A DNA stretch of 64,000 nt from NCBI RefSeq assembly GCF_050920415.1, contig NZ_CP169309.1. The stretch is one strand, 5' to 3'. The notes beneath the pieces were generated by a model. That model did no database searches. It worked only from the letters and a program-made list of their open reading frames with translations, and was not told the origin of the DNA. This stretch comes from Escherichia coli (GTDB taxonomy: Bacteria; Pseudomonadota; Gammaproteobacteria; Enterobacterales; Enterobacteriaceae). Position 1 is the stretch's first letter, and each line of letters starts with the position of its first letter. A program made the position numbers and the translations under genes. Positions 2,459-41,177 of the stretch are shown one piece after another.

Positions 2459-3016
2459 TTAAAACGTGGTGGGCGTATGGGCGCTGATAATTCGGCAAAT
2501 ACCTGCCGACGTATTACTGAAACTGTGCGGGATGCCGGTATTAATGGCATAACTTTGCCCCGCGACGAGGTGGTAATCCTGACCATTAATCGTCAGAACA
2601 ATTTCACCTTCCAGTACAGTGCCTATTTCCTCACCCTGATGCTTAATTCTTTCCCCAGTGGTTGTGCCCGGCTGGTAAGTTTCAAAGATCATCGCCAGCG
2701 TGCGATTCGGGTTACCGTTATGAACCAGCTTCATTGACACACCCTGACTGCCCATCTCAATTAAGTCGTCCTGATTAATGACGACCTGTGGCTCATCAGG
2801 TTTTTCCGGCTCGGAAAAGAATTCCGAGAGTGACAGACCATACACCTTCAGCAGCTTTTGCAGCGTACTGATGGCAGGGCTGACTTTATCTTGTTCTATC
2901 GTACTGATAGCACTGTGAGTCAGCCCGGAGAGTTCGGCGGCACGACGTTGTGAAAGCCCCTGCTGCTGGCGGATTTCCGACAAGCGTTTTCCTGGCGCCA
3001 GTCCCTCATCACTCAT
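2459..3016 (-). CDS. puuR: HTH/cupin transcriptional repressor of putrescine utilisation
   Basis: 185-aa ORF with N-terminal HTH (QQQGLSQRRAAELSGLTHSAISTIEQ) and C-terminal cupin region. Confidence 0.9.
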   Translation of the reverse strand: MSDEGLAPGKRLSEIRQQQGLSQRRAAELSGLTHSAISTIEQDKVSPAISTLQKLLKVYGLSLSEFFSEPEKPDEPQVVINQDDLIEMGSQGVSMKLVHNGNPNRTLAMIFETYQPGTTTGERIKHQGEEIGTVLEGEIVLTINGQDYHLVAGQSYAINTGIPHSFSNTSAGICRIISAHTPTTF

Positions 3017-3042
3017 ATTTGCATTTCCTTAAACTGTAGTGG

Positions 3043-3807
3043 TCAGAGTCGCTGTTTTTCAGCGATATGGTGCTGACAAGCGGTGATAAAGCCCTCGAAC
3101 AATATACGCGAAAGCGCGTACTCGCTACTGTTCCATTCCGGGTGCCACTGTACGCCCAGCGCAAAAGGATGATTGATGACGCTAACCGCCTCAACTAAGC
3201 CATCCGGCGAGCGAGCTTCAACACGCAACCGTGGGCTAACGACCTTCGCCCCTTGTCCATGCAGAGAGTTTACCCAAAAGTTGCTACATTCAGGTAACAG
3301 TGCAGACAGCAATCCCCCCTCTTCAACCTGAACTTCATGCGACGGTGCATATTGCTGTTCCACCGGCAGTTCGGGATCTTCCCGATGTTCCAGCAATTCA
3401 GGCTGTTCGCACAGCTTGCGATGCAACGAACCACCGGTTGCCACCACCAGTTCCTGTAAACCCCGGCAGATGGCGAAAATGGGGATGCGCCTTTCGAGTG
3501 CGGCATTAATTAACGCCATGCTCAGAAGATCACGCCCGGGATCGGCGTCAGGCTCATCGCCGTTTTCACCATATAGGTGCGGCTGCACATTGCTGGGACT
3601 ACCAGGAAGATAAATACCATCGAGTTTCGGCAAAAGTTGTTCAAGTAATGACGGTTCCGCCAGCGCATGTGGCAGCGCAATTGGCAAGCCGCCTGCGTGG
3701 ATGATGGCATTCAGGTACTTTTCTTGCAGAGTCTGGGTCGCATGACCCTTAAGCCTGTTCCTGCACATTACGACACCGATAACCGGATTGTTCATTATAT
3801 TTTCCAT
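3043..3807 (-). CDS. puuD: gamma-glutamyl-GABA hydrolase
   Basis: ORF trimmed to MENIMNNPVIGVV..., 254 aa; glutamine amidotransferase-like. Confidence 0.88.
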   Translation of the reverse strand: MENIMNNPVIGVVMCRNRLKGHATQTLQEKYLNAIIHAGGLPIALPHALAEPSLLEQLLPKLDGIYLPGSPSNVQPHLYGENGDEPDADPGRDLLSMALINAALERRIPIFAICRGLQELVVATGGSLHRKLCEQPELLEHREDPELPVEQQYAPSHEVQVEEGGLLSALLPECSNFWVNSLHGQGAKVVSPRLRVEARSPDGLVEAVSVINHPFALGVQWHPEWNSSEYALSRILFEGFITACQHHIAEKQRL

Positions 3808-4018
3808 GCTCAATCTCACAAAGTGGACTAAATTATCGCCATTACTGCGCTTTAAATGACCTTTATGTTCAATATTTTTTCAATTTAGCAGCGGGTTTTC
3901 ATTTTTGCAAACTCAATTTAACATTTGACAAACATTTAGTTTGCATACAGATTCGAATGGTGGTCATTATATTTTACGCTTTGATAACGAGCGGAAAACA
4001 AACCAAAGGCGAAGAATC
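3808..4018. promoter_or_regulatory. divergent puuD / puuA promoter-operator region
   Basis: AT-rich 211 bp intergenic between divergently oriented puuD and puuA; individual sites not resolved. Confidence 0.5.
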
Positions 4019-35812: not shown

Positions 35813-36571
35813 ATGCATTACCAGCCAAAACAAGATTTACTCAATGATCGCATTATCCTGGTGACGGGAGCCAGCAATGGTATTGGTCGTGAAGCCGCGA
35901 TGACGTATGCACGCTATGGTGCGACAGTGATTCTGTTGGGCCGTAATGAAGAAAAATTACGTCAGGTAGCCAGCCACATAAACGAAGAAACTGGGCGTCA
36001 GCCACAGTGGTTTATTCTCGATTTGCTGACCTGCACGTCCGAAGATTGCCAACAACTGGCACAGCGCATTGCCGTTAATTATCCGCGTCTGGATGGTGTT
36101 TTGCATAATGCCGGATTGCTCGGCGATGTTTGCCCAATGAGCGAGCAAAACCCGCAGGTCTGGCAGGACGTCATGCAGGTCAACGTTAATGCCACCTTTA
36201 TGCTCACCCAGGCACTGCTTCCTTTATTACTCAAATCGGACGCCGGTTCACTGGTCTTTACTTCATCAAGCGTTGGACGTCAGGGGCGTGCAAACTGGGG
36301 CGCTTATGCAGCGTCGAAATTTGCCACCGAAGGGATGATGCAGGTACTGGCCGATGAATATCAGCAGCGCCTGCGCGTCAACTGCATTAACCCAGGTGGT
36401 ACGCGCACCGCAATGCGCGCAAGCGCCTTCCCGACCGAAGATCCACAGAAACTTAAAACACCCGCTGATATCATGCCGCTCTACCTCTGGCTGATGGGCG
36501 ATGACAGCCGCCGTAAAACCGGCATGACCTTTGACGCCCAACCGGGCCGTAAACCAGGAATATCCCAATGA
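35813..36571 (+). CDS. yciK: short-chain dehydrogenase/reductase
   Basis: 252 aa; TGASNGIGRE Rossmann motif. Confidence 0.9.
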   Translation: MHYQPKQDLLNDRIILVTGASNGIGREAAMTYARYGATVILLGRNEEKLRQVASHINEETGRQPQWFILDLLTCTSEDCQQLAQRIAVNYPRLDGVLHNAGLLGDVCPMSEQNPQVWQDVMQVNVNATFMLTQALLPLLLKSDAGSLVFTSSSVGRQGRANWGAYAASKFATEGMMQVLADEYQQRLRVNCINPGGTRTAMRASAFPTEDPQKLKTPADIMPLYLWLMGDDSRRKTGMTFDAQPGRKPGISQ

Positions 36572-37158
36572 GTGATGAACGCTACCAACAGCGTCAGCAG
36601 CGTGTAAAAGATAAAGTGGATGCCCGTGTGGCCCAGGCCCAGGATGAACGCGGTATTATCATCGTCTTTACCGGCAATGGAAAAGGCAAAACCACCGCGG
36701 CATTTGGTACAGCAGCTCGCGCAGTTGGTCACGGAAAAAAAGTGGGCGTCGTGCAGTTTATTAAAGGCACCTGGCCTAATGGCGAACGAAAACTGCTGGA
36801 GCCACACGGCGTTGAGTTTCAAGTGATGGCAACGGGCTTTACCTGGGATACGCAAAACCGCGAATCTGATACCGCAGCCTGCCGTGAAGTCTGGCAACAT
36901 GCCAAACGAATGCTGGCAGATGCTTCACTGGATATGGTTTTGCTCGATGAGCTGACGTATATGGTGGCGTATGACTATTTACCACTGGATGAAGTGGTGC
37001 AGGCGTTAAATGAACGTCCACATCAACAGACGGTGATTATCACGGGTCGTGGTTGTCATCGGGATATTCTTGAACTGGCGGATACGGTAAGTGAATTACG
37101 CCCTGTCAAACATGCGTTTGATGCCGGTGTTAAGGCGCAAATCGGGATTGATTATTAA
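36568..37158 (+). CDS. btuR: cob(I)yrinic acid a,c-diamide / corrinoid adenosyltransferase
   Basis: 196 aa; P-loop GNGKGKTTAAFG; start overlaps the yciK stop by 4 nt. Confidence 0.93.
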   Translation: MSDERYQQRQQRVKDKVDARVAQAQDERGIIIVFTGNGKGKTTAAFGTAARAVGHGKKVGVVQFIKGTWPNGERKLLEPHGVEFQVMATGFTWDTQNRESDTAACREVWQHAKRMLADASLDMVLLDELTYMVAYDYLPLDEVVQALNERPHQQTVIITGRGCHRDILELADTVSELRPVKHAFDAGVKAQIGIDY

Positions 37159-37163
37159 GGGAA

Positions 37164-37197
37164 AGCACCTCAAAAGATCGCCTCTTGAGGTGCTTTA
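37164..37197. terminator. hairpin downstream of btuR (also downstream of the 102-aa minus-strand ORF)
   Basis: agcacctcaa...ttgaggtgct inverted repeat followed by tttaat. Confidence 0.55.
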
Positions 37198-37210: not shown

Positions 37211-37519
37211 TCAAGCGGCAATAGCAAAACTCAGAATCCGTTTAATCTCATTCAAATGTCCCGGATATGCTTCATGATTCTCAGCGTCAACATCTTCAAT
37301 AAATAATATCAGTTCAGTAATTAACGCATTGGCATCTTCATAACTGATTCCGCTTAACTCTGGCGAAGTTTCAGTACCGTAGTTAATCGTCAGATTGTTC
37401 ATCACCGTGAGGATAAGGATAAAATATTTATGACAAACCTTGCAAGTGGTTTTGTTGCCCAGAGTATTATACAGCATATCAAGTAATGCCAGTATTCTAC
37501 GGTTTTGTACATCGTTCAT
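37211..37519 (-). CDS. hypothetical 102-aa protein, second gene of an AT-rich two-gene module; function unknown
   Basis: Uninterrupted ORF in ~35% GC DNA; strong SD (taGGAGGggc) 7 nt upstream of ATG; starts 12 nt after the upstream lipoprotein stop; single CxxC (CKVCH), acidic C-terminal half. Confidence 0.6.
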   Translation of the reverse strand: MNDVQNRRILALLDMLYNTLGNKTTCKVCHKYFILILTVMNNLTINYGTETSPELSGISYEDANALITELILFIEDVDAENHEAYPGHLNEIKRILSFAIAA

Positions 37520-37531
37520 AAAAAGCCCCTC

Positions 37532-38533
37532 CTATAACATTATTCCGCTGGCAATAAGTAATTTCGCCAGCCCCTCAGACGCCTTTAACCCACTAATGAC
37601 CTGTGCGCGTAATATTTCATTTAATCTGTTTTGTTCAGCTGCCGTGCGTGTTTTATTAGTGTATAAACCTTTTAGATAATCACCCTTATCTATAAAGGCA
37701 TTTAAAGCTTCAATCGCGGGCATTGCAGCAGCCGATGCCTGTAGTCTGGTTTCATTCACATTGATTACTGAACTTAGAAACTCCTTCCTGTTTTTCAGAG
37801 TGTTAAACTCTGTATTCTTAGAGTTTTTAGATACCGCATTATAATAAAGCATATTATTATGTACATTCGCAAAGGTATAATTTTCAATCTTATCGCCTTT
37901 TGTATAAATATCATTACGCAAAACAGTCATGTTTTTTATAAGTCTTACCCAATTTTTATCCGCCGTTTTACCTATTTTCCCAGCATTGACCTTTATTATA
38001 TATAACTCGTTGAAATAACTTACTAAATCTTTAACTGCCGCTGCCGATTCAGCTAAATCTTTGCTATGTGAAACATCAAGTAGTGTTTGCGCGTTGTTTG
38101 CGTGATCCAGAGCCTGTTTAAGTAATGTCACTTGCTGACTTTCTGTAGTTTTTATGTCTTCAGTCAAGAGCTCTACATAAGCACTCATGCTATTAATGAC
38201 TTCCATTGAAGCCAGTAGTTTCTCTTTTTCGAATGGGACTAATTGTACTTTATCTGTTTTTTCTTCAGGGGGCCTGCATAATTTTCCACCCTGACCATCG
38301 TTCGCAACATCAATGGTATAATCAGGTCGCAATGCACAATCCGGATTAGTCGCATAAAAATTAACAAGGAAGTTTTCACGAGAAGCATAGTATTGTTTAA
38401 AGAAACTTGCATTCGCCGCAACCGCCTTGTTACCCGCAGTAATAACAGTTTCAGCTTGCTCATTTTTCAATGCTTCAGTTGCACAACCTGAAAGCATTAA
38501 CAGCGATAGAAATAATCCACTATATCTAATCAT
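37532..38533 (-). CDS. hypothetical 333-aa lipoprotein (predicted outer-membrane-targeted), first gene of the AT-rich module
   Basis: N-terminus MIRYSGLFLSLLMLSGC-ATEA (signal peptide plus lipobox LSGC, Ala at +2); SD agaGGTGG upstream; 1 kb ORF in AT-rich DNA where stop codons are frequent. Confidence 0.7.
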   Translation of the reverse strand: MIRYSGLFLSLLMLSGCATEALKNEQAETVITAGNKAVAANASFFKQYYASRENFLVNFYATNPDCALRPDYTIDVANDGQGGKLCRPPEEKTDKVQLVPFEKEKLLASMEVINSMSAYVELLTEDIKTTESQQVTLLKQALDHANNAQTLLDVSHSKDLAESAAAVKDLVSYFNELYIIKVNAGKIGKTADKNWVRLIKNMTVLRNDIYTKGDKIENYTFANVHNNMLYYNAVSKNSKNTEFNTLKNRKEFLSSVINVNETRLQASAAAMPAIEALNAFIDKGDYLKGLYTNKTRTAAEQNRLNEILRAQVISGLKASEGLAKLLIASGIML

Positions 38534-38654
38534 AACCCACCTCTTGACGTTGAGTTTATCTCAGATAATTAAATAGTAATGTGGCTATTCCCTGGCATTA
38601 TTCATAAGCAAGTATGAAATTAAATTAAAATACTGCGACTATTTATCATGCTTC

Positions 38655-38690
38655 AAATGAAGAAAAGGCCCCGCAGGGCCTTTATTTAAT
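38655..38690 (-). terminator. rho-independent terminator of rluB
   Basis: aaaggccc-cgca-gggccttt hairpin 20 nt after the rluB stop, followed on the minus strand by ttttcttcattt. Confidence 0.7.
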
Positions 38691-38702: not shown

Positions 38703-39578
38703 TTAACCGTTATTATTACGTCCACCAGAACGACGACCGCCGCTGACCTGGCTGTGACGTTTCACCGCACGACGAATTTGATTCGCCTTCATACGACGAC
38801 GGTCTTTTTCTACAGCAACTTTAGAGCTGGTTTCTGGCGGTAGTTCCACCAGCTCACGCAGATAGTTAGTCTGGGCAAGATCCAGCTCAGTCCAGCCACC
38901 GCGTGGCAGACCTTTCGGCAGTGGGATATCACCGTAACGCACGCGGATCAGACGGCTCACCTGCACACCAACAGCTTCCCAAAGACGACGAACTTCACGG
39001 TTACGGCCTTCGGTCAGAGTAACATTGTACCACTGGTTGATCCCTTCGCCGCCGCTGAACTTAATGGTTTTAAAGGCTGCCGGACCATCTTCCAGCTGCA
39101 CGCCACGACTCAAATCACGCAGTTTCGCGTCGTCAACCTGACCAAATACACGCACGGCATATTCACGTTCAACTTCACGGCTTGGATGCATTAGACGGTT
39201 TGCCAGTTCACCGTCGGTGGTAAACAGCAGGAGACCGCAGGTGTTAACGTCCAGACGACCTACGGCAATCCAGCGTGCACCGCGCAGTTTTGGCAGACGG
39301 TCAAATACCGTTGGACGCCCTTCCGGATCGTTACGGGTACACAACTCACCTTCCGGTTTGTAATAGGCCAGAACGCGACAAATTTGTTCAGCGGACTCAC
39401 GTACCGAAATCAGGTGACCATCGATACGGATTTTCAATCCAGGGGTAATTTCAACACGATCGCCGAGTTTAGCAATTTTGCCATCAACACTCACACGACC
39501 GGCTTCAATAATAGATTCGATTTCACGGCGAGAACCGTGGCCGGCACGCGCCAGCACTTTCTGTAGCTTTTCGCTCAT
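38703..39578 (-). CDS. rluB: 23S rRNA pseudouridine(2605) synthase
   Basis: 291 aa; S4 domain at the N-terminus, pseudouridine synthase core, basic RG-rich tail. Confidence 0.93.
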
Positions 39579-39678
39579 AGAGCTTCCTTTTGGTGTCGCC
39601 TTCCCAGGCGTCGAACAGGAGAATCAATGGCGCAGTAGAGCGCCATTTTAAGGCCGCGTAGTATACAGAGTTAATCAC

Positions 39679-40299
39679 TTATAAAAAAGGCTTCACATCA
39701 CCTACACCTTCACGCAATACGACTGGCGTATCATCGGTGAGATCAATAACCGTTGTCGGTTTCTGCCCGAGATAGCCGCCGTGAATAATCAAATCCACCT
39801 GTTTTTCCAGACGGTCTTTAATTTCTTCCGGGTCAGACTCGGTAAATTCGCTGCCAGGTAGCATCAGTGATGTGGAAAGCATCGGTTCGCCCAATGCTTC
39901 AAGCAACGCCTGCGCAATCGGGTTAGAAGGCACACGCATACCGATGGTTTTGCGTTTTTCCTGCAACAGACGGCGTGGCACTTCCTTCGTCCCCTTCAGG
40001 ATGAAAGTGTAGTTACCCGGCGTATTGTTTTTCATCAAACGAAACGCAACGTTATCGACAAATGAATAGGTCGAGAGTTCAGAAAGATCGCGACACATCA
40101 GGGTAAAGTTGTGACCGTCCGGCAGCTGGCGAATACGACAAATACGCTCCATGGCGTTTTTATCTTCAATTTTACAGCCGAGCGCATAGCCGGAATCAGT
40201 TGGATAAACAATCACCCCGCCTTTACGCACGATCTCCACCGCCTGGTTGATCAGACGTTGCTGCGGGTTATCAGGATGAATATAAAAAAACTGGCTCAT
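39679..40299 (-). CDS. yciO: YrdC/Sua5-family dsRNA-binding protein
   Basis: ORF trimmed to MSQFFYIHPDNPQQRLINQAVEIVRKGGVIVYPTDSGYALGC..., 206 aa. Confidence 0.88.
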   Translation of the reverse strand: MSQFFYIHPDNPQQRLINQAVEIVRKGGVIVYPTDSGYALGCKIEDKNAMERICRIRQLPDGHNFTLMCRDLSELSTYSFVDNVAFRLMKNNTPGNYTFILKGTKEVPRRLLQEKRKTIGMRVPSNPIAQALLEALGEPMLSTSLMLPGSEFTESDPEEIKDRLEKQVDLIIHGGYLGQKPTTVIDLTDDTPVVLREGVGDVKPFL

Positions 40300-41177
40300 A
40301 ATTCCCTCTCTGTGGTGTTCTGCGGCTGTTCCCATAGCTGCCAGACGCCTTCAACGCCTGCGGGCAGCCAGAGTTTACGACCCAGTTCGATCCACGGGCA
40401 TGGCTGATGAAAATCAGATCCTTGTGATGCCCATAAATGGTGCTGGCGGGCAAGCGTCGCCAGTTGGGTGCGTTCATTGGGCGATTGCTGGCACTGCGCG
40501 ACTTCCATCGCGTCGCCGTGGTGTTCGGCAAAATGCGCAACCAATCTTTTCAGCCATTTAGCACTAAGATTGTACCGCCCAGGATGAGCAAGCACTGCCT
40601 TACCGCCAGAATGATGAATGACATCAATAGCTTGTTCTATTGTACACCACTGTGGCGGAACGTATCCGGTTTTCCCGCGTGCCAGATATTTTTTAAAGAC
40701 ATCCGCTATTGAACTGGCTTTGCCACATTCAACCAAGAAACGCGCAAAATGACCGCGCGTCACCGCACCGCCCTGCGCCAGTCGTTGCGCGCCTTCCAGC
40801 GCCCCAGGTATTTGCGCTTTTTCAAGTCTTTCGGCAATTAACTTCGCCCGCTGATTGCGCCGTTCTGTCTGCTGCGCGAGGAACTCACTCATTGCCGAAT
40901 GTGCAATATCAATATTCAGCCCGACAATATGAATTTCATGATTTTCCCAGACGGTGGATATTTCCACGCCAGGAATAAGATTCAGTGCCAGTCCTGAACG
41001 TGAAATTTCTTCTCTTGCTGGCGCGATTGCCGCTGTGGTGTCATGGTCGGTGATCGCCAGGGTGCCGACGCGCATCTCGACTGCACGGTGCACCAATGCT
41101 TCTGGCGTCAGGCAGCCATCGGAAGCTGTGGTATGGCTGTGCAGGTCATAAATCACTGCGTAATTCGTGTCGCTCAA
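40296..41177 (-). CDS. trpH: PHP-domain 5'-3' exoribonuclease / phosphoesterase (TrpH / YciV / RNase AM)
   Basis: PHP motif HSHTTASDG; proposed TTG start (plus-strand caa at 41175-41177) gives 293 aa; an alternative ATG lies upstream. Confidence 0.85.
   Translation of the reverse strand: MSDTNYAVIYDLHSHTTASDGCLTPEALVHRAVEMRVGTLAITDHDTTAAIAPAREEISRSGLALNLIPGVEISTVWENHEIHIVGLNIDIAHSAMSEFLAQQTERRNQRAKLIAERLEKAQIPGALEGAQRLAQGGAVTRGHFARFLVECGKASSIADVFKKYLARGKTGYVPPQWCTIEQAIDVIHHSGGKAVLAHPGRYNLSAKWLKRLVAHFAEHHGDAMEVAQCQQSPNERTQLATLARQHHLWASQGSDFHQPCPWIELGRKLWLPAGVEGVWQLWEQPQNTTEREL

Follow-up and report, generated by a model that had tools for sequence, protein, structure and literature searches.

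A two-gene islet of Escherichia coli that pairs a polymorphic predicted lipoprotein with a small protein predicted to be helical

Comparison with described systems

The SitA/SitI proteins of Myxococcus are polymorphic lipoprotein toxin-immunity pairs associated with outer membrane exchange (PMC5562445, PMC8546572). The locus described here lies within a 64,000-nucleotide (nt) stretch of the Escherichia coli chromosome (contig NZ_CP169309.1, assembly GCF_050920415.1; hereafter the window), where the region is 100% identical to that of strain MFDS1022581 (NZ_CP169399.1). It comprises a gene for a putative lipoprotein of 333 aa (37532..38533, minus strand) and, immediately downstream, a small gene for a protein of 102 aa (37211..37519, minus strand). 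The likeness to SitA/SitI is one of layout. A lipobox protein adjoins a small, apparently cytoplasmic protein, the N-terminus of the lipoprotein is conserved, the divergent 3' part of its gene is swapped as a unit with the downstream gene, and the whole is mobile. The E. coli pair differs from SitA/SitI in having no detectable toxin domain and no sequence similarity to them, and E. coli is not known to have an exchange system of the TraAB type.

Four-helix-bundle executioners include the 4HB domain of MLKL, the fungal HeLo/HELL domains, plant RPW8, and the CC-NLR domains (PMC7705454, PMC12881547). The small protein is also modelled as a four-helix bundle, but it has no significant Foldseek match, no attached regulatory domain, no sequence similarity to these proteins, and no evidence of membrane activity. 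The larger protein is like TraT, Bor/Iss, Cor, and Llp in being an accessory lipoprotein, probably of the outer membrane, that is encoded on adenine-thymine-rich (AT-rich) mobile DNA, including a conjugative element, and shows signs of diversifying selection. It shares no sequence similarity with them, however, and they act alone, without a conserved co-translated cytoplasmic partner. Zinc-binding anti-sigma (ZAS) factors such as RsrA carry an HxxxCxxC motif and belong to zf-HC2. Like them, the small protein is predicted to be a small cytoplasmic helical bundle with conserved Cys and His residues, which could bind Zn or sense redox state and sequester a partner. The motif here is instead CxxC(H)...H, zf-HC2 of Pfam is not matched even at an expect value (E) of 10, and there is no sigma factor gene in the islet; we therefore rejected a ZAS identity. 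We searched the literature by protein accession, by neighbouring genes, and by locus name, and no publication on the pair came up. By these comparisons the two proteins make up an orphan family whose architecture recalls known kinds and matches none.

Pairing, operon structure, and allele classes

The sequence-only reading of this DNA had treated the small protein as a partner tightly coupled to the lipoprotein gene, a view that would be refuted if homologues of the two genes usually occurred apart or if the small open reading frame (ORF) were not conserved beside the lipoprotein gene. Neither is the case. A count over 5426 complete E. coli genomes gives the same figure for the small gene and for the lipoprotein gene, 1234 genomes each (~23%). 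The small gene occupies 1237 places in its 1234 genomes, with essentially no orphan copies, and the two genes adjoin in every case inspected. Citrobacter sp. ANG330, E. whittamii, and E. albertii have the pair too, again between cobO and rluB. A remote pair is carried by Erwinia gerundensis (PMC9872571) as cargo of a PFGI-1-type integrative conjugative element (ICE; TIGR03747, TIGR03752, TraD, TraC). The small protein of that pair, P0042 (95 aa), is 35% identical to the one in the window, and its gene starts 14 nt downstream of a gene for a lipobox protein of 347 aa that aligns end to end with the window lipoprotein at 26% identity (E 7e-33). The partnership survives the attempt to refute it because even this remote pair is adjacent. 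In the Erwinia contig (JAOSHP010000004.1, 4800..7300), the pair and a convergent Mrr_cat nuclease gene form an islet of 28-36% guanine-cytosine (GC) content, inserted among conserved transfer genes of the 56% GC element. The Mrr-type nuclease has a weak match to the PADLOC candidate PDC-S02 (E 5e-4).

A search of 5.8 billion proteins returned full-length relatives of the small protein from Escherichia only, at 65-97% identity. The homologue of Citrobacter sp. ANG330 was added via its genome context. When 1.84 billion representatives were searched exhaustively with a profile, P0042 (E 1.6e-7) was the single addition. The lipoprotein alignment, used in its turn as a profile, yielded nothing new, a scan of species-representative genomes gave two Escherichia loci only, and no relatives were found in 2.9 million viral contigs. 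A short ORF in AT-rich DNA that matches no family might be a chance ORF and no gene at all. We give this idea practically no credence, and consider it refuted: the protein has homologues of 65-97% identity in several genera and one of 35% in Erwinia, its start, Shine-Dalgarno sequence (SD), and length are kept, its fold is predicted with confidence, and its ratio of nonsynonymous to synonymous substitution (dN/dS) is far under 1. This ratio is 0.11-0.27 in comparisons with unsaturated dS; for the two main E. coli alleles, whose synonymous sites are saturated, dN is 0.15. By these measures the small ORF, which has an ATG start and is annotated in RefSeq as a coding sequence for a hypothetical protein (WP_001000709.1), is a real gene and is under purifying selection.

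The junction of the two genes (37528..37534, minus strand) is as the sequence-only reading had described it. The TAG stop of the lipoprotein gene is at 37534..37532, the AGGAGG SD at 37533..37528, and the ATG of the small gene at 37519, which leaves a spacer of 12 nt (37520..37531) between stop and start. The SD overlaps the stop codon and finishes 8 nt short of the ATG, and the minus strand reads TTA TAG GAGGGGCTTTTT ATG. The order stop-SD-ATG is kept in all relatives with spacers of 6-14 nt; TAGGAGG is kept in all Escherichia and Citrobacter alleles, and GGAGG in the ICE pair. No terminator was found between the two genes in a scan, and the only strong hairpin follows the small gene. RNA structure at the junction is not significant (z −0.28), a value on which we rejected sequestration of the SD by RNA structure. 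The proposed co-transcription and tight coupling are thus supported by the conserved stop-overlapping SD, the spacing of 6-14 nt, and the lack of an intervening terminator. As read from these signals, the small ORF is the second cistron of a two-gene operon and is translated from its own strong SD, and the overlap of SD and stop suggests matched synthesis of the two proteins.

Most of the operon is a sharply bounded, hyper-divergent allelic cassette (~37168 to ~38340) that spans the small gene and the lipoprotein gene from codon ~65 to its end. In a sliding-window comparison of the E. coli allele in the window (type A) with that of sequence type 131 (ST131; type B), nucleotide identity is 52-80% inside the cassette and 95-100% outside it. 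A megablast to ST131-type genomes matched only query positions 1161-1544. Type A alleles occur in ~424-458 genomes and type B alleles (ST131 and others) in ~776-810. Synonymous sites are saturated in the cassette, where the proportion of synonymous differences (pS) is 0.7-0.9 as against 0.05-0.15 in the first 60 lipoprotein codons, and the alleles should therefore be far older than the surrounding chromosome and predate the divergence of the flanks at the species level. The inner edge of the cassette is at lipoprotein codon ~65; the promoter region, the signal peptide, and the first helix therefore appear to form a conserved frame, and the remainder of the lipoprotein gene is, to judge by the allele boundaries, exchanged with the small gene as one unit. 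A third type (roughly 34 genomes by count difference) is a mosaic, in which the small gene and the last ~36 lipoprotein codons are of type A and the lipoprotein centre is different, being only ~60% identical to type A. The E. coli alleles are homologous over their full length (63-75% identity) and are not unrelated modules. The small protein is the more conserved of the two, both between E. coli alleles (75% identity vs. 63% for the lipoprotein) and between E. coli and Citrobacter (69 vs. 51%). Ancient allele classes of this sort suggest long-term diversifying or balancing selection, as at surface antigens, phage receptors, and toxin/immunity loci.

At the level of genome comparison, the two genes go as one in inheritance, loss, and exchange. 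The strict pairing, the ancient and sharply bounded alleles, and the copy on a conjugative element say, in genomic terms, that the two proteins work together.

The two genes make up a 1.5-kb islet of 33-40% GC between cobO and rluB, where the flanks have ~52% GC. K-12 is without the islet and has only a 39-bp spacer from rluB to btuR/cobO. Given its low GC content, its absence from K-12, and the AT-rich islet inside the ICE, it is a horizontally mobile accessory operon of foreign origin. An Rfam scan of the islet gave no match. The gene order in this part of the window is cysB, topA, yciN, sohB, yciK, cobO (36568..37158, plus strand), the small gene, the lipoprotein gene, rluB (38703..39578, minus strand), yciO, rnm, and trpE. 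The yciQ gene (DUF2207, ~631 aa) is missing from the window, in which a 100-bp spacer (39579..39678) separates rluB from yciO (39679..40335). It is present between yciO and rluB in K-12, ST131-type strains, SMS-3-5, and E. whittamii; Citrobacter sp. ANG330 likewise lacks it.

Upstream, the rluB terminator (38683..38664) directly precedes the operon 5' region (38534..38663, minus strand), which holds the SD AGAGGTGGG before the lipoprotein ATG and is ~98% conserved between alleles. No consensus promoter passed in a promoter scan of 38534..38663. A candidate internal promoter at 37865..37838 was rejected, its TATAAT being derived from conserved Tyr-Tyr-Asn codons and its -35 element not being conserved. 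Between the convergent 3' ends of cobO and the small gene is a hairpin with a perfect 15-bp stem (37162..37196; −22.7 kcal/mol, z −5.4, equalled by 0/200 shuffles in RNA folding). The consensus terminator scan missed this hairpin, which is probably a bidirectional terminator closing the operon. The 39-bp spacer of K-12 holds an unrelated hairpin that is replaced here by the one at 37162..37196.

The two proteins and their disrupted copies

The translation of 37211..37519 given in the sequence-only reading is exact, with CKVCH at residues 26-30 and YFILILTVM at residues 32-40. Its description of the protein as lacking a signal peptide and having an acidic C-terminal half also stands; residues 52-102 have an isoelectric point of 4.2 and a charge of −8, and residues 1-51 a charge of +1.6. 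The hydrophobic stretch YFILILTVM is indeed present, but as a membrane segment it fails, since it is predicted to form the buried face of helix 2 in a four-helix bundle. A membrane anchor was rejected on the grounds that the stretch is too short and its hydrophobicity is not conserved. The maximum 19-residue mean of Kyte-Doolittle hydropathy is 1.06 in the small protein and 0.22 in P0042; the usual cut-off for a membrane segment is 1.6. The small protein is predicted to be cytoplasmic and soluble.

Despite a shallow alignment, the AlphaFold2 (AF2) model of the small protein is a four-helix bundle (helices 3-21, 27-42, 60-76, and 82-99) with a mean predicted local distance difference test score (pLDDT) of 88 and a predicted template modelling score of 0.83. 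Cys26, Cys29, His88, Ser52, and Glu54 are invariant across the family, P0042 included, as is a motif in helix 3 (A63-N64-x-x-I67-T68-E69-L70-x-L72-F73-I74-x-D76). In the model, Cys26 and Cys29 at the start of helix 2, Asp76 at the end of helix 3, and His88 in the upper part of helix 4 should be near one another in space. Judged from conservation and helix positions, the Cys/His triad is probably a site for Zn or redox chemistry, clamping helix 2 to helix 4. The His of the CxxCH (His30) varies and is Lys in P0042.

Several identities for the small protein were considered and rejected. A c-type cytochrome or haem c site (CxxCH) does not fit a protein that has no export signal, a His that is not conserved, and no cytochrome family match. 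Weak matches to C2H2 zinc fingers (E 0.26-2.2) are chance; the small protein has Asn in place of both His residues of that motif. The RR at residues 7-8 is not a twin-arginine translocation (Tat) signal; Asp occurs in the stretch that follows, RR is missing in the remote homologue, and the residues lie in a confident helix of the bundle. The name "amino acid kinase family protein" traces to the carbamate kinase model arcC (TIGR00746), to which there is only a trace of similarity over 35 residues (E 0.13, 11 bits vs. a cut-off of 358); it is further ruled out by the absence of a Pfam match and by a length of 102 aa and an all-helical fold. The Prokaryotic Genome Annotation Pipeline has given this name to the allele WP_001000713.1 (NZ_CM142798.1, 350..658), where it looks spurious. 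A type II toxin-antitoxin system is contradicted by the predicted export of the large protein, and neither a family of such systems nor a DNA-binding domain was matched.

No usable match to either protein was obtained with Pfam (single sequences and all alignment members), NCBIfam, PADLOC, PHROGs, or PDB sequence profiles, and hhalign of the small protein against the lipoprotein showed no relation. The Foldseek check recommended with the sequence-only reading gave no significant match for the small-protein model in AFDB50 or the PDB. The best full-length structural overlaps (TM 0.72-0.75) were with two uncharacterised AFDB entries of similar size, A0A0H3I4W8 (Pectobacterium parmentieri, 101 aa) and A0A7U3Z6H9 (98 aa), at a Foldseek probability of 0.96-0.98 and E 3-5. 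On these models, they could be very remote relatives.

The lipoprotein has a signal peptide and a lipobox, MIRYSGLFLSLLM-LSGC, with Cys17 in the motif and Ala at +2. The lipobox is invariant in homologues, including those of Citrobacter and the ICE. Asp at +2 is the signal for inner-membrane retention; with Ala in that position, the lipoprotein is probably sorted to the outer membrane. Its N-terminus (residues 1-65) and C-terminal tail (~300-333) are conserved and its centre is variable. The fastest-evolving part is the stretch from Cys66 to Cys86 (38276..38338, minus strand; codons 66-86), in which two Cys residues that are invariant in the alignment surround a hypervariable loop. The ratio of nonsynonymous to synonymous differences (pN/pS) is 0.7-0.9 here vs. 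0.2-0.5 elsewhere in the gene, and the stretch is a probable periplasmic disulfide loop. AF2 models the lipoprotein as all-helical, with a confidence (pLDDT 49) too low to base a fold search on.

Disrupted copies of both genes occur. In one isolate (L021, GCA_014144795.1) an insertion sequence (IS), IS1, lies in the small gene after codon 77, and the lipoprotein gene and the 169 bp upstream are identical to the common ST131 allele. A metagenome contig (L022) has IS1 in the small gene after codon 48, and in another contig (L023) the last third of the small gene, at its 3' end, is missing; both contigs retain a full-length lipoprotein gene. Judged from the genes, these three knock-outs argue against the small gene being indispensable. 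The converse is also found, with the lipoprotein gene frameshifted, truncated, or interrupted by an IS and the small gene intact, in individual cases from which no asymmetry of rates can be claimed. In the type strain of E. albertii, NBRC 107761 (2898..3916 of its locus), the lipoprotein gene is truncated to 244 codons beside an intact small gene. Truncated lipoproteins of 241-252 aa recur in several database members, which suggests a lineage-fixed pseudogene. One complete genome (L018, NZ_LR898874.1) was found in which the small gene is split by an IS and the 5' end of the lipoprotein gene also contains IS1, and 2 of the 1234 genomes lack an 80% match to the small gene. IS1 and the IS5-like ISKpn26 have inserted repeatedly in both genes (L018, L021, L022, and search hits H26 and H127). 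Many database entries for both proteins are partial, cut off where a contig stops, as would be expected if the islet is a target of IS elements. Two further loci were not used as evidence: one with both genes broken in a genome that looks rich in errors (L016), and one on a short read-assembly contig (L017).

Possible roles of the pair

Our preferred reading, held with low confidence, is that the small protein is a dedicated intracellular partner, or keeper, of the lipoprotein precursor, made in step with it. Its binding site on the unexported precursor would be a conserved one, either the N-terminal helix or the C-terminal tail, and it would hold, neutralise, or dose the precursor before Sec export. 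Binding of a conserved part of the precursor would account for a conserved small protein beside a diversifying exposed centre, and for viable mosaics that keep the termini. This role is supported by the coupling and co-occurrence of the two genes, by the predicted cytoplasmic location of the small protein, by its greater conservation, and by its being tolerated with different centres that share conserved termini. The small protein is probably not an essential antidote, because cells exist with a destroyed small gene and an intact lipoprotein gene. Several points weigh against a keeper. To our knowledge, lipoproteins of the Sec/Lol route normally need no dedicated cytoplasmic chaperone, and AT-rich islets of E. 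coli are often silenced by H-NS. The metal site is a prediction from residue conservation and the placement of the helices. The small gene is intact beside a truncated or frameshifted lipoprotein gene in E. albertii NBRC 107761, in one further locus (L004), and in one ICE copy, which would be unexpected for a pure chaperone if the lesions are old.

The two proteins may instead never touch, the small one having a cytoplasmic job of its own, e.g., as a Zn- or redox-sensing regulator that acts on the operon or on some other target, and being merely co-transcribed. Their different compartments fit this, as do the invariant CxxC...H, which suggests a metal or redox switch, the small gene kept intact where the lipoprotein gene is broken, and the tolerated loss of the small gene with the lipoprotein gene intact. 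We nevertheless think it unlikely, since adjacency, order, and spacing are kept down to 26-35% identity and from the chromosome to an ICE, presence and absence match across the 5426 genomes, there is no DNA-binding or other domain, and the stop-overlapping SD suggests matched synthesis.

The sequence-only reading had pointed, with due caution, to toxin/immunity and effector/chaperone pairs as precedents for the arrangement. We found no positive evidence for either, as no toxin, immunity, or chaperone domain was detected in either protein, and the toxin/immunity version is further weakened by the slower evolution of the small protein, the mosaic pairing, and the knock-outs of the small gene beside a full-length lipoprotein gene. 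A form of it modelled on SitA/SitI would have an outer-membrane lipoprotein that is toxic to neighbours through contact or vesicles and a small protein that confers cytoplasmic immunity, the two being exchanged as a cassette. The parallels are considerable: a gene for a lipobox protein and, 6-14 nt further on, one for a small, acidic protein of the cytoplasm; ~65 conserved 5' codons and then a sharply bounded divergent cassette that takes in the downstream gene; ancient allele classes with saturated dS within one species; mobile, AT-rich DNA; a lipoprotein gene often inactivated with the small gene intact; and, in L018, a split small gene accompanied by IS1 in the lipoprotein 5' end. Yet searches of Pfam, NCBIfam, PADLOC, PHROGs, and PDB sequences gave neither a toxin domain nor any family match. 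The variable parts, at 63% identity, are homologous along their whole length and are not unrelated modules, and it is the small protein that is the more conserved. A type A small gene is found with a lipoprotein centre ~60% identical to type A, orphan small genes are essentially absent (1237 places, 1234 genomes), and IS1 knock-outs of the small gene stand beside an intact wild-type lipoprotein gene and upstream region. We also know of no lipoprotein exchange machinery in E. coli. On balance we regard a SitA/SitI-like role as improbable. We are similarly sceptical of a conflict or defence module (anti-phage, exclusion, or abortive infection), in which the lipoprotein, at the surface or in the periplasm, would block or sense an invader and the four-helix bundle would be a cytoplasmic effector that attacks membranes or signals, comparable to the MLKL, HeLo, RPW8, and CC-NLR executioners. 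Foldseek lists for the small protein repeatedly include RPW8, HeLo-like, and MLKL-like entries, but none is significant and designed bundles score almost as well. The defence models of PADLOC-DB v2 gave 0 families for both proteins and their ICE homologues, even at E<=1 or 0.1.

A broader proposal, which we consider a long shot, is that the islet is a new enterobacterial conflict system, consisting of a polymorphic outer-membrane lipoprotein whose C-terminal four-fifths is swapped as a cassette and a cognate cytoplasmic Zn/redox four-helix-bundle protein. If true, either the pair would be a SitA-like toxin with its immunity protein, the first such case beyond the myxobacteria, or the lipoprotein would act as a sensor or excluder at the envelope and the bundle as an executioner of the MLKL/CC kind. 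The system would be kept as ancient alleles in Escherichia, including the pandemic ST131, and would also be borne on an ICE.

In practical terms, the partnership is real, the toxin/immunity label is premature, and one RefSeq product name is spurious. The pair is present in ~23% of complete E. coli genomes, ST131-type genomes included, where it is annotated merely as hypothetical and belongs to no described family. Should it prove to be neither a toxin/immunity pair nor a defence module, it would be another orphan accessory operon; should it be one of these, it would represent a new family. If the lipoprotein is surface-exposed, it would be a candidate for strain typing or as an antigen.

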